Below the pieces are notes generated by a model. It did not search any database. It saw only the letters and a list, made by a program, of their open reading frames with translations, and was not told where the DNA came from. Below, piece after piece: positions 14,893 to 28,647 of a stretch of 64,000 nt of DNA. The translations under genes were made by a program, and so were the position numbers. Source of the stretch: Leptospiraceae bacterium. GTDB taxonomy: Bacteria > Spirochaetota > Leptospiria > Leptospirales > Leptospiraceae. The stretch is from positions 112,741 through 176,740 of the forward strand of contig JAKRSH010000026.1 in assembly GCA_022402465.1 (NCBI GenBank). The letters are read 5' to 3'. Positions within the stretch are counted from its first letter, which is position 1. Each line of letters opens with the position of its first letter.

Positions 14893-15432
14893 ATGAGAAT
14901 TAAAAATAAAATTATTCAATATTTTAGTATATTCTTACTTTCAAATTGTTCTCTACTCCATTTTACAAGAGAAGAACCACAAGCAGTTGAAAAGAAAGTA
15001 GTGATTATACAAACTCAATACCCTAAGCCTATAGTTGGGCGAGTAGAATGGATAGATTTACCTGATTTTCAGCTAAAAATTAGGTCTAGAATAGATACAG
15101 GTGCAAAGTCTTGTTCTCTTCATGCTACAAATATAGTTCCAGAAAAGGAAGGGGATGCCTTGTTCGTAAATTATGATTCAATAGGGAATGATGGAAAACC
15201 CGTTCGCTTACGATCCAAGGTTCTTTATGAATCTAAGGTAACAAGTACTAATGGAAAAACAGAATCACGTTATGTAATTCGTGCTAAAGTGAAACTTGGA
15301 AAAGTTTCAGAAATAGTTAATGTTAATCTTAATGATAGAACAAATTTAACTTATAATTTTCTGGTTGGAAGGAATTTACTGATGGGTAATTTCGTAGTTG
15401 ATGTTTCTTCTTCCCATGTCTTGGGGGATTAA
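14893..15432 (+). CDS. retropepsin-like protease of the 'ATP-dependent zinc protease' (RimB-like) family
   Basis: 179-aa ORF. Lipobox-like LLSNCS. The aspartic-protease signature D-T-G-A lies at nt 15094-15105 (RIDTGAKSCSLHA). It is the first gene of a three-gene overlapping operon. Confidence 0.65.
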   Translation: MRIKNKIIQYFSIFLLSNCSLLHFTREEPQAVEKKVVIIQTQYPKPIVGRVEWIDLPDFQLKIRSRIDTGAKSCSLHATNIVPEKEGDALFVNYDSIGNDGKPVRLRSKVLYESKVTSTNGKTESRYVIRAKVKLGKVSEIVNVNLNDRTNLTYNFLVGRNLLMGNFVVDVSSSHVLGD

Positions 15433-17054
15433 TGAGAAAAATTATTTATATTCCTGCTTCTATATTGATAGCAATTCCACTTCTAACAATTTTTTATAAA
15501 ATCTATTTTGCTGGGTTGTCATTTCTTCCTGTTAGCTTAGATTATATATGGAATATTGAAATATTAATTTCGCCTAAACAAGAATCTAAGTATATTCAAC
15601 TGAATTTTCCTATTTTAAAAAGTACAGATGATCTCGAAGTTATTCAATCTAATTTTGACAATCGTTCTTTGAATTTAGATCTTGAAAAAAAGAGCTATGG
15701 TAATCTTGCCAAATGGGAATCAGAAAATGATGAAGGTGAAACGTATGATGTTCTCCAGCAGAAACCTATTGTTTATAATGCAAAAATAAAGTTAATAAAT
15801 GTTGATTATCCAATTATTGAAAAAGATTCAAGCAGAAAATATACACCTAAAATTAATAAGTATCTCGAACTCAACCAATATTCCAAAAAAGAATTATTAG
15901 AAGCTAATAAATTGATAAAAGCACTATCTATAGAAGATAAAGATAAAACTGAAAAAGCAAAGTATATTTATTATTTCATCCATGAAGAAATTCTTAATAC
16001 TTTAAAAACTCTTTCCCTGGAAGAGTCTATGCTTTTAAGGAAAGGTTCTAGTTACAATAAATCCAAATTGTATACACTTCTATGTAGACTATCAGGCGTT
16101 CCTACTCGAACTATCATGGGCATTTATTTAGATCAGAACCAAAACAGCGAAGAAGAAGATAAATTCAAAATTCAATATTGGAATGAAGTTTATTTAAATA
16201 ATCGTTGGTTCCCCGTTCTTACTATGAATGAATATTTTGGAACAAAGCCATCACATTATGTTAGTTTGTATAGAAATGCAGATCGAATCTCATCTTCTTT
16301 CGAGGATTCTAATTCTAATTTTAACTATAGAATTTATGCAAAACAAGTCCAAGCAAATAGCTATAACCTTAAAGAGTATGCTAAGGAGGTTAAAGAGTCA
16401 GGAACTTTTATAAACCTTATATCTTTGTATGGTCTACCTATTAACCAACAAAGTTTATACAGAATGATTTTACTTCTTCCTCTTGGAGGTCTGATACTTT
16501 CCGTCTTTAGAAATATAATAGGTGTTCCAACATTTGGAATTTTTACCCCAATATTATTGACCTTATTTTTCTTTGAATCAGGTTTAGCCTTTGGATTAGT
16601 CTTTTTCACATTGATAGTTGCCTTTGGTTTCTTTGAACGGTATATACTAGATAAGCTTTATCTTCTTGCTGTTCCAAGAATGTCAATAATTTTGACTTTA
16701 ACTGTTTTTTCATTGGTTCTCTTCTCTACATTTACAAATAGCTTCCAACTTCTTTCCGGAATTGGCATTAATTTATTTCCTATTGTAATAACAACAGTCT
16801 TTATCGAAAGATTTAGTGTTATGCTCATCGAGGAAGGCAGTCTCAACACTATTATTGCAGTCTCTGGAACTTTATTTGTTTCAATAACAACGTATTTACT
16901 TTTTTTGATTCCTAATCTTTCTATAATCTTTTTTACCCACCCTGAATTACTTTTAATGATAGTAGGATTCCTACTGATTCTAGGAGATTACAAAGGTTAT
17001 CGAATTTCTGAATTAATCCGTTTTAAAGATTTGGTAAAAGTAAAGGGATTATGA
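15432..17054 (+). CDS. inactive transglutaminase-like domain fused to a 7-TM module
   Basis: 540-aa ORF whose start overlaps the previous stop by 1 nt. The periplasmic domain has a transglutaminase-core-like segment in which Ser occupies the expected catalytic Cys position (RKGSSYNKSKLYTLLCRLSGVPTRTIMG). Seven hydrophobic helices fill the C-terminal ~210 aa. Confidence 0.6.
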   Translation: MRKIIYIPASILIAIPLLTIFYKIYFAGLSFLPVSLDYIWNIEILISPKQESKYIQLNFPILKSTDDLEVIQSNFDNRSLNLDLEKKSYGNLAKWESENDEGETYDVLQQKPIVYNAKIKLINVDYPIIEKDSSRKYTPKINKYLELNQYSKKELLEANKLIKALSIEDKDKTEKAKYIYYFIHEEILNTLKTLSLEESMLLRKGSSYNKSKLYTLLCRLSGVPTRTIMGIYLDQNQNSEEEDKFKIQYWNEVYLNNRWFPVLTMNEYFGTKPSHYVSLYRNADRISSSFEDSNSNFNYRIYAKQVQANSYNLKEYAKEVKESGTFINLISLYGLPINQQSLYRMILLLPLGGLILSVFRNIIGVPTFGIFTPILLTLFFFESGLAFGLVFFTLIVAFGFFERYILDKLYLLAVPRMSIILTLTVFSLVLFSTFTNSFQLLSGIGINLFPIVITTVFIERFSVMLIEEGSLNTIIAVSGTLFVSITTYLLFLIPNLSIIFFTHPELLLMIVGFLLILGDYKGYRISELIRFKDLVKVKGL

Positions 17055-18019
17055 TTTTTCAGACATTGAAAAATTCTGGCATACTTGGAATGAACCAAAG
17101 AATTGGTGAATTTATTTTGCCCTTGAATCCTAGGCATCTTTATCCTTTAGTTGATGATAAATCTATTACTTATAATCTTTCACAACAATTCAATATTCCC
17201 ATGCCCAAGACATTTTTTGAGATTAAGGAATTTGGTGAAATCAAAGAAACCGAAAATAAATTGAAAGATATTCCGAGTTTTGTTATAAAACCTTCTAGGG
17301 GTGGTATGGGAAATGGTATCCTTGTTATAAATGATACAATTTCAAATGGTAAAGAAGTTTTTTACAAACGAGGAAGTAATGTAACAATTACGACCCAAGA
17401 ACTTCACCATCATATATCTGGGATACTTTCTGGTCTTTATTCTTTGAATGGGAATCCTGATAAAGTTATCTTTCAAGAAAAATTAAATCTGCATCCCATA
17501 TTTCATGGTTATGTAGATTCAGGCATCCCAGACCTTAGGATTATTTTATTCAAAGGAATACCCGTACTATCGATGTTACGTTTCCCAACCAAAGATTCTG
17601 GAGGTAGGGCAAACCTGCACCAAGGTGCTGTTGGAGTTGGATTGAATATGTTAAATGGAAGAGCCACTTTCTTAGTTCATAGAAATAAAATGGTAAACGA
17701 TTATATTGAATTTACTAAGGATATACAAAAATTTCAGATCCCAGATTGGCCTCAAATTTTACACCTGGCTTCAAAAACTTATGATATGGTTAATATGGGT
17801 TATTTGGGTGTGGATATTGTTTTAGATCCTGATAGAGGGCCTATTCTACTAGAATTGAATGCTAGACCAGGATTAGCGATTCAACTCGCCAATCGTATGG
17901 GGCTTGCAAAGATCTTGCAGGATATTCAATCTAGAGAACTTGAGCTTGATTCCTTTGAAAGTAGAGTCGCATTTTGTTTTGAATTTTGGAATTCGCAAAA
18001 AGCTTCACAATATATTTGA
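17051..18019 (+). CDS. RimK-related ATP-grasp ligase (alpha-L-glutamate ligase-like protein)
   Basis: 322-aa ORF overlapping the previous stop by 4 nt. ATP-grasp pattern (..FVIKPSRGGMGNGILVI.. ; ..GRANLHQGAVGVGL.. ; ..GYLGVDIVLDPDRGPILLELNARPGL..). Confidence 0.7.
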   Translation: MIFQTLKNSGILGMNQRIGEFILPLNPRHLYPLVDDKSITYNLSQQFNIPMPKTFFEIKEFGEIKETENKLKDIPSFVIKPSRGGMGNGILVINDTISNGKEVFYKRGSNVTITTQELHHHISGILSGLYSLNGNPDKVIFQEKLNLHPIFHGYVDSGIPDLRIILFKGIPVLSMLRFPTKDSGGRANLHQGAVGVGLNMLNGRATFLVHRNKMVNDYIEFTKDIQKFQIPDWPQILHLASKTYDMVNMGYLGVDIVLDPDRGPILLELNARPGLAIQLANRMGLAKILQDIQSRELELDSFESRVAFCFEFWNSQKASQYI

Positions 18020-21436: not shown

Positions 21437-21524
21437 TTCGGGATGGAGTGGTGAGGAATGGTTCGATCTAGAATTATAGTAATCTGGATCTATATTAGAA
21501 TATGAATATATAGTAAAATAAAAT

Positions 21525-22118
21525 TTATTTTGGCAAAAAATAGCCTAATATACACTCAGGATTTCGAATACAGATTTGTATGTGATTTTTTTCATGGAAG
21601 CCAGCATTGGGATAAATCTCCTTTCCTTCTCGAAAATATCCTCTAACAGAATCAAATGAGATTAATTTTTCTTGTTCTCTCATTGCATGTAGATTTTCAA
21701 TTACAGCACAATCTAAATTTCTTAATAAGATGTCATTTTCATTATCAATTGGTTTGTTAATTGGCATTGGAAATCCAGAATTTTGAATTGTTTCATGAAG
21801 CAATTTGTGACTCAATTTCAAGAATTGAATATTTTCAGAATTGAGAAGATTTAAGCAATTTCTTAAATCTATAACAGCTGCAATCACTGAAGGATTTGAA
21901 ATTTTAATTTTGCTTCTTTTGTTATTGTTTTTGAGATGTATCGCATATTCTAATGCTCTGGAGTAATTCCCTTCCCAAAAATATATTCCGTTTCCAAGCC
22001 AATCATACTTATTTTCGCTTTTCTTTAAGTTGCTCTTTCCCATTACAACATCTTCAGCAATTTTTTTGTCAGTTCCATGGAATCCAAGGACAAGACCTGG
22101 AATGTAGGAATCGATCAT
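21525..22118 (-). CDS. hypothetical protein with PARP/ADP-ribosyltransferase-like H-G-T and G-x-G-I-Y-F motifs (candidate toxin; DUF3990-like pattern)
   Basis: 197-aa ORF. GFHGT lies at H14 (nt 22077-22079). WLGNGIYFWEGNYSRALEY follows at Y46 (nt 21981-21983), 32 residues later. The spacing and wording resemble the H...Y elements of H-Y-E ADP-ribosyltransferases; candidates for the third acidic residue are AVIENL or IRNPECI. The function is inferred from motifs only. Confidence 0.4.
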   Translation of the reverse strand: MIDSYIPGLVLGFHGTDKKIAEDVVMGKSNLKKSENKYDWLGNGIYFWEGNYSRALEYAIHLKNNNKRSKIKISNPSVIAAVIDLRNCLNLLNSENIQFLKLSHKLLHETIQNSGFPMPINKPIDNENDILLRNLDCAVIENLHAMREQEKLISFDSVRGYFREGKEIYPNAGFHEKNHIQICIRNPECILGYFLPK

Positions 22119-22279
22119 TTTTTATAAATAGATTTAAGATTTCCAGAATTTGTATAGATTCCAGTTTTTTTTAAATAATTTTCGCTCGCAGATTTTGAGG
22201 AGGTAACTTTCTTAGAAAATTCCTTAAGTTTCTTGACCTCTTCTTGAATTGTTAGAATTTTTGCTTTTTTCTCTTCCAT
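22115..22279 (-). CDS. small ORF (54 aa) not in the supplied track; candidate antitoxin/partner
   Basis: Hand translation of the minus strand gives ATG at 22279-22277, then MEEKKAKILTIQEEVKKLKEFSKKVTSSKSASENYLKKTGIYTNSGNLKSIYKK, then TGA at 22117-22115. This stop overlaps the ATG (22118-22116) of the 197-aa ORF as ATGA. The ORF is below the 60-aa cut-off of the track. It is Lys/Glu-rich with a probably helical N-terminus. Confidence 0.4.
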   Translation of the reverse strand: MEEKKAKILTIQEEVKKLKEFSKKVTSSKSASENYLKKTGIYTNSGNLKSIYKK

Positions 22280-22501
22280 TTGTATATTTTAATTTATTCT
22301 TGAGATTAAATCAATAAAAATCTATATTATATATAAGTTATTAGTTAAATAAGAATATTGTCCCGCCTGGAAAAATGTCTTAATTTTGGTAAACTCGTAT
22401 TTCAAAACCATTTAACCTATCTTCGCATCCTTCTTAGAAAATACTTATTTTAAAGTAAGAATAATTTTATATTTTTAAAATGCTTGTTTGATTAAATTCT
22501 C

Positions 22502-25258
22502 TTAAACATAAGGCTCGATCCTTTTGTACCGCATCTGAAAAGCATCTTTTCCACCTTCCAAAATGGAACAGATCTCTTCTCGAATTTTTTTATCTTGCAA
22601 ACAACCCTTAGTTTCCAAATTAGTTTGACCATATTTCGATTCTAAGCAGTATACCAATTCAGAATCTCCATTTACGACTATATTAGCGTTATGTGTAACT
22701 ACTATAATTTGTCGCTTTACTTTTGATTCTTTTAATTGTTTTACTATCAATTCGTAAATTAAACGATTATCCAAATCATCTTCTGGTTGATCTAAAATGA
22801 TTGGATCACTTCCATAAGATAAAACGAATGATAATAATGCAGCCGTTTTTTGTCCAGGTGATCCTTGATCTATTGGCTGATATTGCTCTCTTGCATTTTT
22901 ATATTCTATGTTCAATGAGTCTTCAGGAAAGAATAGTTCGAGTTGGTCAATACTTTGTGAAGGAAGTTTTAATATTCGCTCTTTGAATTGCGTATACCCT
23001 CTAACACTTTGAGTAAAGTCCTGTCCAATTAATAGTCCCTTTATTCTTTTTTTTAAATCAATTATATTATCCTCACTAATTCCATTTGAATAAAGATCAT
23101 AAACTAAGCCATCGTCCGAATCAATACTTCCAATAATTTTATCAAAACCAGTTTCCGTATTTAATATTTCTCGGAGTTTAGCTTCAACCCCCTGCTTGTT
23201 TCCAAATGGAATTATTTCTATTTTAACCGATTGATTAGATTGAAACACCTTATCCAGAAACTCTTGTCTTTTTGTTGAAAGATTTTTTCTATGTTCCAAT
23301 AATTCTCTTAAGACGGTTTCAATATCTTGCTCTAATTGACTGCATTCTTTTTTAGTTGATTCTATTTTATGAATTTTTGATTCTAAATCTTGTTTAACTT
23401 GAAAGAGTTTGCCAAATTCTTCTTGTGCATTTGTGGAATTAGCAGATAAATCTTTTAAAGTCTCATCATAATTCTTAATAGAATTATTGAATCTCTGAAT
23501 CCAAATACTTTGTTTTTTATCTCTATTCCATTTCTCTAATGCAACAATCAATGACTTTGCTTGCTCTGATAAAGAGGATTTTATTCTTTCAACTTCAGCA
23601 TTTACTGTCTGAATTAGATTTTTTAAATCTTCATCGGCTTCATCACTGTCAGCAATCGATTCGTTCGGGAGATTAATTAATATTATCTCTTCAGTAATAC
23701 TTGATATCTTGTCGGGAATTTCTGCAAAATTCAATTCCCAGGAATTCAAACGACTATTTTGGTTTTGACGCTTTTGGTATTCTATTAAAATATCTTTAAA
23801 TCCCTTTTCTTCTAGAGTGATTATCTTTTTAGAAATATCTGAAAGTTCTCCTTTCCAATCTACTTCTTTATCGAGAGTTAGTTTTAATTCTCTCAATTTA
23901 TTTTTGTATGAATAAAATTTATTCTCTAGTTCTTCTTTTTTCGATTCCCAATCTCTATATCCAACTTCTTTTTGTTGGCTAATCACATCGATAAGATACT
24001 TAGGATTATCCGCAAAAGAGTAAATCTGCTTCTGACTATAAATACTAATAGGGAATCTTTCTTTTATATTTCCTTCTTCTTTGATCCATTCATTCCCGTC
24101 CCATGACTCAATAGAATTTAAACCAGAGTCTGTATATTCCCAATTGATTTTGTATTGGGTGTTGTTCTTTACATAGACTAGACTAAATTTAGAATCAGCG
24201 GTTAATAAGCCTCTCTGTGATCTATTTTCAGGAATTTCATTGTACTTAATAAATTCAGATTTCAAATTTTCAGGAATTTCATCTTCTCTTCTCATAACTA
24301 AACGAACAAACTCTACGATAGAGGATTTACCTGTTCCTCTTCCGCCAATAAAAGAATTCATCCAAGGATTTAATTTTAATTCTTGCTTTCCAATTCTGCC
24401 TATATATTTGGAATTTTCAATATTTATACTTTCAATATAGTTTAAACTATGTTCGTTAGGATTATTAGGATTTTCATCCGATCTTTTAATCGATAATACC
24501 CCGTCCATTAGAGCAAGTTTCAAACCATCCAGAGAAGGATTACCCATCTTAACCCAGGTAAAACTTTTCCCAGGATAACTCTGATTGCCTGTCCCTGTCG
24601 GATGGTGTGAATCAGAACTAAGAACAAGTGGAAGATTTCTTGTGCCTAATTTACTAAGTAATGGAGAAGTTAAATCAACCACCTCTAATGCTGTAATCGA
24701 ATTATCTAATATTTGATTTAATGAATTTCCAGAAAATTTATCCAATAAACCAGAAGCTTGGTCAATATGTGCTGGTATTGCAATTCCGCCTTTGTCATGG
24801 ATAATCTGAATTACTTCCTTTACTGATTTCGAAGTAACCGCATCACTTTTACCCTTAGTACCGTCATAGCCTGCCAAAGCTAAGACTTCGGTAATCTTAT
24901 CTTTATTCTCATTCAATTTAAAGATTGCTAAAATATGTATTCCACCATTCGCACTTATTTCAACACCAGGAAATAAATACATTTCTCTGAAATCCGCCTC
25001 TTGTTTCTCTGCATTTCTCATTTCTTCAAAGGCTGTATTCAATTGGTCAACCCATTCACCTGAATTATGATCTGTAATTGCAACACAGTCTATTTGAGCT
25101 TTCATAAAGTTCAATAGCCATTCCTTAGGAGTGATATTCATTAACTGTTGTTGATTAGAACCTTTACCATAATCATCCGATGCTGGCGTATGTGTATGAA
25201 AATCAAATTTCCACCATTTGGCTCCAATCCAATTATTAGTTGAGTCCACCCCCATCAC
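22502..25258 (-). CDS. PHP-domain phosphoesterase fused to SMC/OLD-like ABC ATPase (Ppl-like architecture)
   Basis: 918-aa ORF. The PHP motif set is DFHTHT, ITDHN, GVEIS, IPAH and SSDSHH, all within aa 1-260. Walker A GGRGTGKS is at nt 24323-24346, followed by a long Lys/Glu-rich coiled-coil-like insert. Then come the signature-like SPGQK, Walker B IILDQPEDDLD (nt 22769-22801) and VTHN. The track start is GTG at 25258; an ATG at 25255 is the next codon and an equally likely start. Confidence 0.8.
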   Translation of the reverse strand: MMGVDSTNNWIGAKWWKFDFHTHTPASDDYGKGSNQQQLMNITPKEWLLNFMKAQIDCVAITDHNSGEWVDQLNTAFEEMRNAEKQEADFREMYLFPGVEISANGGIHILAIFKLNENKDKITEVLALAGYDGTKGKSDAVTSKSVKEVIQIIHDKGGIAIPAHIDQASGLLDKFSGNSLNQILDNSITALEVVDLTSPLLSKLGTRNLPLVLSSDSHHPTGTGNQSYPGKSFTWVKMGNPSLDGLKLALMDGVLSIKRSDENPNNPNEHSLNYIESINIENSKYIGRIGKQELKLNPWMNSFIGGRGTGKSSIVEFVRLVMRREDEIPENLKSEFIKYNEIPENRSQRGLLTADSKFSLVYVKNNTQYKINWEYTDSGLNSIESWDGNEWIKEEGNIKERFPISIYSQKQIYSFADNPKYLIDVISQQKEVGYRDWESKKEELENKFYSYKNKLRELKLTLDKEVDWKGELSDISKKIITLEEKGFKDILIEYQKRQNQNSRLNSWELNFAEIPDKISSITEEIILINLPNESIADSDEADEDLKNLIQTVNAEVERIKSSLSEQAKSLIVALEKWNRDKKQSIWIQRFNNSIKNYDETLKDLSANSTNAQEEFGKLFQVKQDLESKIHKIESTKKECSQLEQDIETVLRELLEHRKNLSTKRQEFLDKVFQSNQSVKIEIIPFGNKQGVEAKLREILNTETGFDKIIGSIDSDDGLVYDLYSNGISEDNIIDLKKRIKGLLIGQDFTQSVRGYTQFKERILKLPSQSIDQLELFFPEDSLNIEYKNAREQYQPIDQGSPGQKTAALLSFVLSYGSDPIILDQPEDDLDNRLIYELIVKQLKESKVKRQIIVVTHNANIVVNGDSELVYCLESKYGQTNLETKGCLQDKKIREEICSILEGGKDAFQMRYKRIEPYV

Positions 25259-28200
25259 ACACCACCTTCAACAATTTTTATTTCGTCTGAAGAGAGTTCG
25301 TAAAGTTCATAGACTGCGAAATCAATTTTCCTATTTAAAGAATTCATCTCTCGAAGTGTTGTATTCTTAATTGACTCAACTTTTGTGTCGAAGGTTTTCT
25401 GTTTCAATTCCATCACCTTTGATACATAATTTGAAATATCGTCATGATATTTGCGATTATTAACGTTAATTATTTTTATTGGTAATGTACCAAAATATTG
25501 CTTAGTACATGTTATCCAGCCACCTCTGAAAATGTTACTGATTTTACGTAAATTCCAAAACAGTAATTTTGAATTTAAAAGACCTAAAATGTAATAAGGA
25601 GAATAATCTTTATTTTGAATAGTAATCGAAAAGCCTCCACTAGCCATTAAACAATACATTTCTTTGGATTCATCTGGGATTAATGCAAATATACCACTAT
25701 TCGCTAATAGTGGTATAACTATATCTGCTTTTGTATGTAAATTTAAACTTCTAGGAGCGCTGAAAGAATACCAACTCGAGAATTGCTTCCTTTTTTCTAA
25801 TAGTTTTTTATTTTCAAGTAAATATGAATACACATTAGGAAACTCTCTTTTTAGCTCCTTCTCTTGGATTAATTCAAAACCTTTATTATTTATTACATAC
25901 GGAAAAATAATTCTTTCATCGTTTAATGGATTAAAAGAATACCTATTAAAATCTGTAGCATATAAAGGAATCTTTAGCAAAGCAGGCTCAAGATTTATTA
26001 CTTCTCCATTTTTAGTTTCGTATTTATCTTTCGATTTTTTTACAATAAAGACACTATCATTTCCTGATGAGCTTCCTCTCGAAATTGCACAAGGTAATTC
26101 TAATAGCTTTAAAGTATTTTGTGAAAGTTTTTTTAGTATTAATTTTTCCTCAGTAGTTGAAAAAACCCAAGTATTATTTTCGAGCAATGAACTATGATCA
26201 AAAATTTGTTCATCATTTCCACTATTCTTGATTGAATTTGGAGGTGAGCAAACTCTATAAGTAAAACCCGATGTATTCATTTTTGACAAAAACAATAAGC
26301 AGGTATAAGTACTAGGTCCATCAAAAACTTGTTCATGTTTAAAATCAATTATTTGAGATAAATGACTACCTTTGATTATTAATGATCGCAGCGCCTCTCC
26401 GTAGTCCGTCGTAAAAAATTTGCTTGGTAAGATAAAACCAAATAATCCTCTATTATTGAGTAAAACTTTCAATGCTTGTTCGACAAAAAGTATATAAATA
26501 TCGTAGTTACCAATTTTACCTGTTTCATATGTACTATTGTAATAGAGAACTGTTTCAGGTGAAATTTCTTTTAAAGCTTGAATGCGAATGTAAGGAGGAT
26601 TTCCAATTATACAATCAAATCCGTTTTCTTTTTCTGATTCGTTGTTTCTTGGATTCAAAATATTAGAAAACTCATACCTCCAATCAAAGGCATTTATTTT
26701 TGATTTTTCTTTATCTGAAATACTAAATAATTTAATGTCTTCATATATATCCGTTCCCACCAAACTATTCCCACATTTAATATTCCCTTCTAATGTTGGT
26801 AATATGGTAGTATGAAACAAAGTTCTCTCATTATAGACTTCATAATGGTTGGTATTTTCCAATGCCTTGAGAGACAAGCTCATCTTAGTTACTTCGACTG
26901 CTTGTGCGTCTATATCCACGCCATAGATGCAGGACTTAAGAATATCTCTTTTTATTTTGGATGTTAGGCGGATTTGTCCATCGGAATCCATATAAACCAG
27001 TTTTCTTTCTTCTTTTGATATTCCTTTGAGTTCGGAAGACTGGGAGTCATTATCAGTATCGAATTTGATTTTTGATTCATAGTAAGATATAGTCCATTGG
27101 ATTAAATGATCGTAAGCAGTGATGAGAAAAGACCCAGATCCACAGGCTGGGTCACAGATTTTGATTTCTAAGAGGTCTTCAAGTTTCTTACACTCCTTTA
27201 ACTTTTCACCGACAGTCTTTTCAACTATATAATCAACAATATAGTCAGGTGTATAATATACTCCTCCAGCCTTTCGAATCTCGGGCTTATAATCAATGCT
27301 AGCTCTTTTGTCGGTTGTTACTACAACTTTGCCCAAGAACTGTTCATAGATAGTTCCGAGAATTTCAATAGGAATTACTTTGAAGTTGTAACGAGAATTT
27401 TCAGGAAGTAAATCCTTTAGGATTTCTAAGAGTATTTTATTGCTTACCTTGACCTCATCCAATTCCGATCGTTTGGTAAAAATGCTTCCGTTATATGTTT
27501 TGTCCAAGGAATCAAAAACATCTCTACATTCATCATAGATAATTCCTTCTTCTTTATCTTTTATAGAAGATATCTTAATGACAAGATTTTTGATGATATC
27601 TTCTTCAATGTCTCGGTCAGAGAGAACTTTTATGAAGATGAAACGATCGAGAATTAATTGTACCGCTTGAGTGATGAATTCAGCTGAAAAATCAGGTTGG
27701 TATTTTTTTATATCTTTAGCTAATTTAATCCTCCAACCGTCTTTCTCATCATCCAAATCTTTAAGGAAAGCCTTATCAGGAGGGATGCGATTCTCTTTGA
27801 TTTTCTTCTCATTGATATAGAGAGATTGTAAGCTGCCATTTCTTACATTTTCTCTTTCAAAATATTCCCAGAGCTTATCAAAATTTTGAATGTAATCTTG
27901 GAATTTCCAATCTATTACGCAATAATTATTTAGAGTTTGGTGGTTCTTAACAGGAAATGTGCAATCAAAAAATCTAAACTCCTCAAAATCTGTAAGTAGG
28001 GCAAAGTCTACTTTTTGATATTTAGCCTTACTTTGAGTGGAATAGGAATAGCTATAGGCTTGCCAAATAAAATCAGTCTTCTTTTGAAGATCATATTTTG
28101 AATGCTTAGCCTCAATATAGAATAAGGGATTTTTATCTAATTGCAGTAGATAGTCAGGTTCTTTTCCATTTTTAGCTTGGGCTTGTACGATAAATTCTCT

Positions 28201-28386
28201 TTCCGCAGGATTTTTTATTCCTTCATTGGATATATTCCAGTTTAGATAGCGAAATAAAGGTTTAATAAATTCATCTTCTATCTGGGCTTCTTTGTATTGC
28301 CCTGATGTTTTGATAAAATCCAATTTGTCTGCAAAATTCTCTGTTAATTCTTGAATCTTTGATTTTGATTCTTCTTTGGTGAACAT
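25255..28386 (-). CDS. type IIG restriction-modification enzyme (fused PD-(D/E)xK-like nuclease, gamma-class N6-adenine DNA methyltransferase and target-recognition region; Eco57I/MmeI-like)
   Basis: 1043-aa ORF. The N-terminal motif is EPDYLL..(x)..FYIEAKH (D78, E92, K94; nt 28105-28155). SAM-binding motif I DPACGSGSF is at nt 27130-27153. Catalytic motif IV GNPPY is at nt 26590-26604. About 440 aa follow motif IV, where related enzymes place the specificity domain. Confidence 0.85.
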   Translation of the reverse strand: MFTKEESKSKIQELTENFADKLDFIKTSGQYKEAQIEDEFIKPLFRYLNWNISNEGIKNPAEREFIVQAQAKNGKEPDYLLQLDKNPLFYIEAKHSKYDLQKKTDFIWQAYSYSYSTQSKAKYQKVDFALLTDFEEFRFFDCTFPVKNHQTLNNYCVIDWKFQDYIQNFDKLWEYFERENVRNGSLQSLYINEKKIKENRIPPDKAFLKDLDDEKDGWRIKLAKDIKKYQPDFSAEFITQAVQLILDRFIFIKVLSDRDIEEDIIKNLVIKISSIKDKEEGIIYDECRDVFDSLDKTYNGSIFTKRSELDEVKVSNKILLEILKDLLPENSRYNFKVIPIEILGTIYEQFLGKVVVTTDKRASIDYKPEIRKAGGVYYTPDYIVDYIVEKTVGEKLKECKKLEDLLEIKICDPACGSGSFLITAYDHLIQWTISYYESKIKFDTDNDSQSSELKGISKEERKLVYMDSDGQIRLTSKIKRDILKSCIYGVDIDAQAVEVTKMSLSLKALENTNHYEVYNERTLFHTTILPTLEGNIKCGNSLVGTDIYEDIKLFSISDKEKSKINAFDWRYEFSNILNPRNNESEKENGFDCIIGNPPYIRIQALKEISPETVLYYNSTYETGKIGNYDIYILFVEQALKVLLNNRGLFGFILPSKFFTTDYGEALRSLIIKGSHLSQIIDFKHEQVFDGPSTYTCLLFLSKMNTSGFTYRVCSPPNSIKNSGNDEQIFDHSSLLENNTWVFSTTEEKLILKKLSQNTLKLLELPCAISRGSSSGNDSVFIVKKSKDKYETKNGEVINLEPALLKIPLYATDFNRYSFNPLNDERIIFPYVINNKGFELIQEKELKREFPNVYSYLLENKKLLEKRKQFSSWYSFSAPRSLNLHTKADIVIPLLANSGIFALIPDESKEMYCLMASGGFSITIQNKDYSPYYILGLLNSKLLFWNLRKISNIFRGGWITCTKQYFGTLPIKIINVNNRKYHDDISNYVSKVMELKQKTFDTKVESIKNTTLREMNSLNRKIDFAVYELYELSSDEIKIVEGGV

Positions 28387-28609
28387 AGTGAGAGTTTTAC
28401 TCTTGTGATTCTATATGTCAAAGGAATTTTTCTTGTAAGGTGTTAAATAAAAGAAAAATTAAAATCTTAATCGAGAGATTGTTAAAATAAATCAAAATAG
28501 ATGGCCAATTTATGTATATAAGTGTTTGTATGGAGGGATTTAAAGTTAAAAATAAGATATTTAAATGTTGAAGATTTCTTAAAGAATTAGAAAAATAACT
28601 TCCTTCTTG

Positions 28610-28636
28610 CGCCTACCACCAATCAGGCAATAGGCG
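28610..28636 (-). terminator. weak candidate hairpin downstream of the DUF6580-like gene
   Basis: CGCCTA (28610-28615) and TAGGCG (28631-28636) form a 6-bp GC-rich stem with a 15-nt loop, 12 nt past the stop of the 28648-29163 ORF. No clear U-tract follows on the minus strand. Confidence 0.2.
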
Positions 28637-28647
28637 ACGATTAGGAT

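Follow-up and report, generated by a model that had tools for sequence, protein, structure and literature searches.

Why should a restriction-modification (R-M) enzyme that carries its nuclease, its methyltransferase (MTase) and its target recognition on a single chain share an operon with the gene for a second putative defence protein, and do the two form one system? The question is raised by a locus in a stretch of 64,000 nucleotides (nt) from a Leptospiraceae bacterium (NCBI GenBank assembly GCA_022402465.1, contig JAKRSH010000026.1, positions 112,741 to 176,740 of the forward strand). This whole stretch is called the window, and coordinates refer to it unless another locus is named. The locus holds two minus-strand open reading frames (ORFs), namely ORF A (25255-28386, 1043 amino acids, aa), which encodes a type IIG R-M enzyme, and ORF B (22502-25258, 917/918 aa), which encodes a TrlF-family, Ppl-like protein with a PHP domain and an SMC/Rad50-like ABC ATPase. 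We lean towards reading the locus as a stacked two-layer operon, in which a working type IIG enzyme would be co-expressed with an autonomous TrlF exonuclease-ATPase. The evidence comes from the two proteins and their junction, from the neighbourhoods of other TrlF genes, and from the closest relatives of the locus.

The coupled gene pair

ORF A was matched by the REBASE-derived PADLOC model REase_MTase_IIG (PDLC03604) at E = 2.5e-202 over residues 6-1038 of 1043. Pfam matches were obtained to Eco57I (7e-45), N6_Mtase, MmeI_Mtase, HSDR_N and TaqI_C, and a protein identical to ORF A is labelled Eco57I R-M methylase domain protein by NCBI. The PD-(D/E)xK nuclease domain (aa 1-200, 27787-28386), matched by HSDR_N at 2.1e-8 on aa 64-143, carries P77-D78 and E92-A93-K94 within 28102-28155; the recomputed positions are 28141-28155 for the D78 motif and 28102-28116 for IEAKH. 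It is followed by the core of a gamma-class N6-adenine MTase (aa 341-700, 26287-27366), with motif I DPACGSGSF at 27127-27153 and motif IV NPPY at 26590-26601 (GNPPY, 26590-26604). The closest solved structure to this core is the CamA adenine MTase (7lni/8cxz, E 2.8e-18). The C-terminal target-recognition region (aa 701-1043, 25258-26286) includes the TaqI_C match on aa 871-970 and is strain-variable. In an alignment with 18 homologues, the most distant of them 42% identical to ORF A, P77, D78, E92, A93, K94, motif I (D412-F420) and NPPY (N596-Y599) are invariant, and past aa 690 invariant columns are few in the same alignment. Judged by its sequence, ORF A is a full-length single-chain type IIG enzyme, with predicted nuclease, N6-methyladenine (m6A) MTase and target-recognition domain (TRD).

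An assignment of ORF A as an orphan PglX of a bacteriophage exclusion (BREX) system was considered and rejected. The BREX_1_MTaseX model gave 99.6 bits against a cut-off of 500, a nuclease domain is present, and no BREX genes lie nearby, as none of PglZ, BrxC, BrxL and BrxA was found among the neighbours of ORF A. A perfect 12-bp inverted repeat with a 4-nt loop, flagged by the terminator scan, lies within the TRD-coding part of the gene (25690-25717, minus strand).

ORF B passes the NCBIfam model TrlF_fam_ATP (NF045780) with 617.8 bits against a cut-off of 350 over residues 11-913, and fails the NCBIfam Ppl equivalog model (NF042955) with 608 bits against a cut-off of 1000. PADLOC sets no curated cut-off for its Ppl model, which matches residues 10-913 at E = 9.8e-145. 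More than 4,000 homologues were found, of which the E. coli members carry the name TrlF family. The Pfam PHP model gave no match to ORF B at E <= 0.01; PHP support in residues 13-195 came from the NCBIfam models CehA/McbA (3.5e-11) and RNase RNM (1.7e-6), and the ABC part was matched by Pfam AAA_21 and SMC_N.

Along the chain, the PHP metal-phosphoesterase domain (aa 11-260, 24476-25225) has the residues H20, H22, D62, H63, E99, H107, H163, D215 and H217, in motifs recomputed at 25187-25204 (DFHTHT), 25064-25078 (ITDHN), 24953-24967 (GVEIS), 24767-24778 (IPAH) and 24602-24619 (SSDSHH). The N-lobe of the ABC head (aa 272-430, 23966-24442) contains Walker A GGRGTGKS at 24323-24346, and a coiled-coil insert (aa 433-671, 23243-23959), seen as long helices in the AlphaFold2 (AF2) model, separates it from the C-lobe (aa 677-917, 22505-23227), which contains SPGQK at 22847-22861, Walker B at 22769-22798 and the H-loop VTHN at 22688-22699. 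All the PHP residues named above, as well as H218, are invariant across 14 TrlF homologues of 43-85% identity, and so are G304-S311, S799-K803, D822-D829 and T854-N856.

The AF2 model of ORF B is of moderate quality (predicted local distance difference test, pLDDT, 71.6, low in parts of the PHP domain) and was used for fold class only. Foldseek matched it to the heads, with coiled coil, of SMC, JetC, Rad50, LmuB and AriA, the best match being 5xei (Smc head with coiled coil), and on the PHP side to the phosphoesterase 3e0f/3o0f and to EndoQ. A sequence search of the PDB with ORF B returned nothing for the single sequence and only weak matches to SMC/Rad50 heads for the profile; no Ppl structure was found by sequence. 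Profiles and fold class together indicate that ORF B combines a PHP phosphoesterase with an SMC/Rad50-like ABC ATPase in one chain and is Ppl-like. The Ppl work of Gao et al. dates from 2020.

The two genes overlap at the hexamer GTGATG (25253-25258, minus strand), where the TGA stop of the IIG gene occupies 25257-25255. On the minus strand the junction reads ...GAA GGT GGT GTG TGA TGG GGG. Translation of ORF B could begin at GTG 25258, with an overlap of 4 nt, or at ATG 25255, with an overlap of 1 nt, and a Shine-Dalgarno-like AAGGTGG lies 6 nt ahead of ATG 25255. The upstream start is favoured because trlF of the related assembly L001 starts with ATG in an ATGA overlap. The arrangement indicates that the IIG and TrlF genes are tightly, translationally coupled in one operon.

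A sequence-only reading of the window had listed the same domains in both ORFs and the overlap of the IIG stop with the start of the PHP-ATPase gene. Both claims are confirmed, the first by profiles, invariant residues and Foldseek folds, and the second at 25255-25258. Its motif coordinates were reproduced except for two slips of 3 nt, since motif I begins at 27127 and not at 27130, and Walker B ends at 22798 and not at 22801. Its likening of ORF B to Ppl stands as far as the full-length PADLOC match and the shared architecture go, but does not extend to membership of the Ppl equivalog, for which the score is too low.

Neighbours and relatives of TrlF

The genomic company of TrlF was surveyed by a pattern scan in which each GTDB species was represented by one genome. 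It gave 80 species-representative TrlF loci (L003-L082) from many phyla, with flanks of up to 8 kb fetched on each side. Neighbouring ORFs were called by operon walk and by seed phmmer and then clustered, and the cluster representatives were annotated with Pfam, PADLOC and NCBIfam. TrlG, a Schlafen/AlbA_2-HATPase_c_4 protein, is encoded immediately 3' of TrlF in 63 of the 80 loci, usually with an overlap, and TrlF-TrlG is, by this pattern of adjacency, the conserved module of the family.

R-M or BREX genes were found in the fetched flanks of 36 loci. The directly upstream gene on the same strand belongs to an R-M or BREX system in 20 of the 80 (PglXI in 11, PglX in 3, another N6_N4 MTase in 2, type I HsdS in 1, type III Res in 1 and BrxL in 2), and it is an MTase gene in 16. 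A random gene would be expected to follow an MTase gene directly in about 0.1% of cases by our own estimate, which assumes a few MTase genes among thousands per genome, and 20 of 80 is far above this figure. In 44 loci, 40 of which belong to the representative set, the seed searches had matched no R-M or BREX gene; Pfam annotation of 71 neighbours from these loci added a few more genes of R-M type (EcoRI methylase, HsdM_N, DUF499/DUF3780), together with AAA_21/DUF4276 pairs and ordinary metabolic genes.

The gene order is PglX > TrlF > TrlG > PglZ > BrxL in BREX-1 and DUF6079/BrxC ... PglXI > TrlF > (TrlG) > SNF2 helicase (BrxHI) > PglZ > BrxA in BREX-3. A 4-nt stop/start overlap occurs at 13 junctions, of which 8 follow PglXI, 3 follow PglX and the remaining two are the IIG junctions of the window and of L001. 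Three BREX-1 loci (L065, L067, L079) have tandem TrlF-TrlG modules or fragments, the first copy being more divergent or partial. The tandem modules lie between pglX and pglZ in L067 and L079, and near those of L065 a BrxL fragment was all that was detected.

Taken with the relatives described below, the position directly behind an MTase or specificity gene recurs in at least six system classes as judged from gene annotation: type I, IIG, ISP, type III-like, BREX-1 and BREX-3. No description of this recruitment pattern was found in the literature searched, the coverage of which is incomplete.

The same chromosomal site is filled in the related assemblies L001, L090 and L091, in each case by the IIG gene and an overlapping TrlF gene, followed by two small genes (54 and 197 aa) that are treated below. 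TrlF is intact in all three, at about 85% identity to the window protein, while the IIG gene varies as is usual for R-M genes. In L091 (7001-10015) aa 701-1043 of the IIG enzyme are 21-32% identical to the window and aa 1-340 are 96% identical; the exchange of the TRD suggests strain-level switching of specificity while TrlF stays unchanged. In L001 (6925-10004, syntenic to window 25255-28386) a frameshifting deletion of 52 nt removes the first 82 residues of the IIG enzyme, including D78, so that its longest ORF begins past D78; MTase, TRD and TrlF are intact. This truncation could be a genuine nuclease-dead variant or an assembly error. L092 has a further IIG homologue, 68% identical along two thirds of its length, and lacks TrlF.

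Beyond the syntenic assemblies the enzyme upstream of TrlF changes. The TrlF of L002 and L083 (76% identity) stands behind a different Eco57I-family enzyme of 1245 aa (IIG- or DrmMI-like), and that of L084 (64%) behind a type ISP enzyme. That of L003 (59%; L003 1310-10748) lies, without TrlG, between type I hsdS and hsdR, beside a cassette of an AAA_21 ATPase and RloB. The occurrence of TrlF proteins of 59-76% identity behind four non-homologous R-M enzymes makes a specific stoichiometric IIG-TrlF complex unlikely. Alignment of the junctions showed no homology between contexts ahead of the W-I-G codons of TrlF, and no common mobile-element junction was found in it. In the sister loci trlF is preceded by a Shine-Dalgarno sequence of its own and by a gap of 5-43 nt, which marks the overlap with the IIG stop as a derived feature of the window lineage.

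TrlG is present in L002, L083 and L084, and absent from the window lineage and from L003. A tblastn search of the 64-kb window found neither a copy nor a remnant, and we propose that TrlG, a putative Schlafen-type RNase with a HATPase_c_4 domain, was lost in the window lineage. In a neighbour-joining tree of TrlF, the BREX-1-embedded, BREX-3-embedded and TrlG-less clades stand apart. The TrlG-less clade includes TrlF of Enterobacterales (Dickeya, Hafnia, Pectobacterium) with neither TrlG nor an R-M or BREX neighbour. In E. coli the homologues occur singly, with prophage tail genes as neighbours, and fall in another clade than the window protein. Three BREX-3-linked, TrlG-less TrlFs from metagenome-assembled genomes of Desulfobulbus, Spirochaetales and Verrucomicrobia (L012, L015, L018) cluster tightly with the solo enterobacterial forms L011, L013 and L059, which hints at recent horizontal transfer of TrlG-less TrlF between phyla and contexts.

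These comparisons bear unevenly on the proposal, in the sequence-only reading, that the two genes form a composite system. The reading had expected homologues of the PHP-ATPase to be enriched next to type IIG genes. This was not borne out, since a nuclease-MTase fusion of type IIG stands directly upstream of TrlF in 0 of the 80 representative loci and the usual partner is TrlG. The gene annotations instead place TrlF next to methylation-based defence operons in general. What remains of the proposal is the coupling itself, the retention of the pair in L001, L090 and L091, and a strongly enriched adjacency to R-M and BREX genes, but type IIG is not the usual neighbour. The overlap had also been read as a sign of stoichiometric pairing. 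It does indicate tight coupling, but it arose within the lineage, and the partners of related TrlFs are not homologous.

The island and its second cassette

The pair lies in an island of low GC content (21437-28647), with GC values of 0.29-0.33 inside against 0.35-0.37 outside. This 21.4-28.6 kb region consists of four minus-strand genes. It is bordered by DUF6691/sulphur-transport genes on one side and by a gene for a DUF6580 membrane protein on the other. The flanks are housekeeping-like, with thioesterase and 7TM-SpoIIE phosphatase genes on the sulphur-transport/DUF6691 side. A scan of the island for promoters and terminators gave counts equal to the shuffle background. Upstream of the island, at 14893-18019 on the plus strand, lies an operon of a RimB-like protein, a transglutaminase-7TM fusion and an ATP-grasp protein (ATPgrasp_ST), which the syntenic assemblies share and which has no relation to the pair.

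The two remaining genes of the island overlap by 4 nt. One is a 54-aa ORF (22115-22279), the probable small antitoxin-like partner of the other (21525-22118), which encodes a toxin-like protein of 197 aa with a predicted ADP-ribosyltransferase (ART) fold. No Pfam, NCBIfam or PADLOC model matched the 197-aa protein. Its AF2 model has a pLDDT of 93.7, and the best Foldseek matches are exotoxin A, PARP, Tpt1 and NatT. The residues H14, Y46 and E164 are invariant in its family, which comprises 2,522 clusters at 50% identity and has one homologue labelled DUF3990 by UniRef. The pair of genes is kept in L001, L090 and L091. It also occurs without TrlF, in toxin-antitoxin arrays of Leptospira sp. 'Mane' (L094) and beside a KAP NTPase in Echinicola (L095). 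A role as replacement of TrlG was rejected for this pair, which is found elsewhere without TrlF and in none of the 80 representative TrlF loci. Independent of IIG-TrlF, it probably represents a toxin-antitoxin or defence cassette that has so far escaped annotation.

Readings of the pairing and known systems

E. coli Ppl is described, in a review summary, as an exonuclease that degrades single-stranded DNA in the 3'-5' direction and is inhibited by nucleoside triphosphates (NTPs) bound to both domains; it is said there to require 3'-OH ends, which phage homing endonucleases make (PMC12904381). Under the stacked two-layer reading, the IIG enzyme would methylate adenine in its own recognition sequence and cut unmodified DNA at a distance. 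TrlF would form the second layer, as a metal-dependent PHP 3'-5' exonuclease under the control of its SMC/Rad50-like ABC ATPase with coiled-coil insert. If it resembles its homologue E. coli Ppl, it may be kept inactive by bound NTPs and digest DNA from free 3'-OH ends in infection. It probably works autonomously rather than as a restriction-enzyme subunit, and co-production with the IIG enzyme may supply it with 3'-OH ends made by restriction. The pairing need not be obligatory, because Ppl reportedly confers protection by itself.

Several observations weigh against this view of the locus. The mechanism is carried over from Ppl to a protein that falls short of the equivalog cut-off (608 against 1000 bits) and is about 44% identical to the E. 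coli homologues. The placement of TrlF directly 3' of an MTase gene in at least six system classes, together with clades that track the host system, fits integration at least as well as hitchhiking. Ends supplied by restriction cannot explain the association with BREX, which is not known to cut DNA or to create DNA ends. Finally, TrlF occurs mostly with TrlG, and the Photorhabdus phenotype maps to TrlG (PMC7554251); a TrlF without TrlG might thus be incomplete, though the TrlG-less enterobacterial clade indicates that solo forms persist.

One alternative, which we think unlikely, is that TrlF is a functionally integrated accessory nuclease that loads on 3'-OH ends of DNA marked or opened by R-M or BREX systems and so gives more than additive protection; destruction of the DNA would stop repair, recombination, or escape by partial methylation. 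Recurrent placement behind MTase or specificity genes of the six classes, often with overlap, would be expected of such a nuclease, as would the agreement between TrlF clades and host system type in the neighbour-joining tree. In one shallow clade the R-M partner has changed at least three times, and TrlF is always directly 3' of an R-M gene. Enzymes of the MmeI/Eco57I type leave 2-nt 3' overhangs. The need of Ppl for 3'-OH ends made by another nuclease, as summarized in the review cited above (PMC12904381), points the same way. Yet the partners are non-homologous, which leaves no room for a conserved, specific protein-protein interface; R-M and BREX genes are missing from the surroundings of about half of the loci, and solo TrlF homologues exist. 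The lack of any known DNA cleavage by BREX counts against integration as well. The gap between an MTase or specificity gene and an effector gene is, moreover, generally permissive, since it holds AAA_21 and RloB in L003 and PARIS or OLD modules in BREX (PMC12839542), and because other cassettes use it too, position alone cannot prove coupling.

A guard or backup role in the manner of PrrC or PARIS is distinctly improbable. It would have the ATPase sense the MTase enzyme or phage anti-restriction factors (DNA mimics, S-adenosylmethionine-degrading enzymes) and release the PHP nuclease, with TrlG where present, when restriction is blocked. The architecture is indeed analogous to the modules of ABC ATPase and nuclease in R-M and BREX loci, AriA is among the Foldseek matches, and in L001 the nuclease domain of the IIG enzyme is truncated while TrlF is intact. 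OLD-ABC/TOPRIM and Schlafen modules have been read as 'backup effectors' of BREX (PMC12839542), and the growth arrest caused by the Photorhabdus locus under stress is abortive-type behaviour (PMC7554251). However, the triggers reported for Ppl in the review summary, NTP depletion and DNA 3' ends, involve no anti-restriction proteins (PMC12904381), the diversity of partners speaks against direct sensing of one enzyme, and the likely suicidal effector TrlG is missing in the window. Chance co-location, or a TrlF decaying after the loss of TrlG, with an overlap that has no functional meaning, appears very improbable. Defence genes do cluster in islands, the unrelated ART-like toxin cassette lies in the same one, the window lacks the TrlG that 63 of 80 loci have, and the overlap is lineage-specific. 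Against decay stand the full length of TrlF, with every catalytic residue intact, and its retention in four assemblies at about 85% identity beside a varying IIG gene; against chance stands the share of loci with an R-M or BREX gene directly upstream, 20 of 80 where, by the estimate given above, about 0.1% would be expected.

The stacked operon, with TrlF as a co-expressed and probably autonomous second layer, is the reading we lean towards for the window, where the result is modest: two proteins of known kinds in one operon. The lead lies in the family-wide recruitment of TrlF. As a tentative and still doubtful proposal, TrlF, usually with TrlG, could be a dedicated and undescribed accessory arm of methylation-based immunity, which finishes DNA that has been marked or opened, or fires when the host system is blocked; the window would then show its minimal two-gene form. 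If the coupling is functional, an auxiliary nuclease would be named for BREX, the effector step of which is still debated, and the source of DNA ends for exonucleases of the Ppl type would be explained. Simple two-gene pairs such as that of the window would then be available for testing synergy between restriction and end-processing.

Among known systems, the Eco57I/MmeI-type IIG enzymes share with ORF A a PD-(D/E)xK nuclease, a gamma-class m6A MTase and a C-terminal TRD on one chain, and ORF A departs from them in operon context only, through the coupled TrlF gene downstream. BREX PglX has the Eco57I-type MTase core in common with ORF A, and in BREX-1 loci its gene sits directly upstream of TrlF.

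The name TrlF comes from the temperature-restriction locus (TRL) trlR-trlF-trlG of Photorhabdus, in which loss-of-function mutations of trlG (AlbA_2 and HATPase_c_4) lift a growth arrest at 36°C (PMC7554251); among the literature searched, the name was met only in that paper. ORF B scores above the cut-off of the TrlF family, and the canonical overlapping TrlF-TrlG pair is found in its sister loci L002, L083 and L084. The window differs in that it has neither TrlG nor TrlR, and the gene upstream of trlF codes for an R-M enzyme, not for a small regulator.

A preprint (bioRxiv 10.1101/2022.08.27.505566) credits Ppl to Gao et al., and Ppl is described as a single-gene defence system in three sources (PMC12904381; PMC11482910; bioRxiv 10.1101/2022.08.27.505566). 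It resembles ORF B in having an N-terminal PHP domain followed by an ABC ATPase with coiled-coil insert, in all catalytic motifs and in the lack of a TrlG partner. ORF B differs in scoring under the equivalog cut-off and in not standing alone, as its gene is translationally coupled to the IIG gene.

Independent defence genes embedded in other defence systems are a described phenomenon (bioRxiv 10.1101/2024.01.29.577857; PMC12839542), and PARIS and OLD modules have been reported inside BREX loci (PMC12839542). In the same 2026 survey of BREX, a link between Schlafen-HisK-wHTH proteins and BREX core loci is reported for at least 1017 taxa, and the OLD-ABC/TOPRIM and Schlafen modules in these loci are interpreted as backups (PMC12839542). 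TrlG falls in this Schlafen-HisK(-wHTH) class, and Schlafen-HisKinase is the commonest prokaryotic Schlafen architecture (bioRxiv 10.1101/2025.07.24.666596). A PHP-ABC protein beside a Schlafen protein is not mentioned in the BREX survey, where 'PHP' has no real match in the main text or supplements (PMC12839542). The embedded modules, i.e. PrrC in the type I system EcoprrI and PARIS, OLD and Schlafen-HisK in BREX, share with the window an ABC ATPase and nuclease placed within or behind an MTase or specificity gene. The host system of the window is a single gene, so TrlF is appended to it and not nested; nested relatives of TrlF are those in the type I system of L003 and in the BREX loci.

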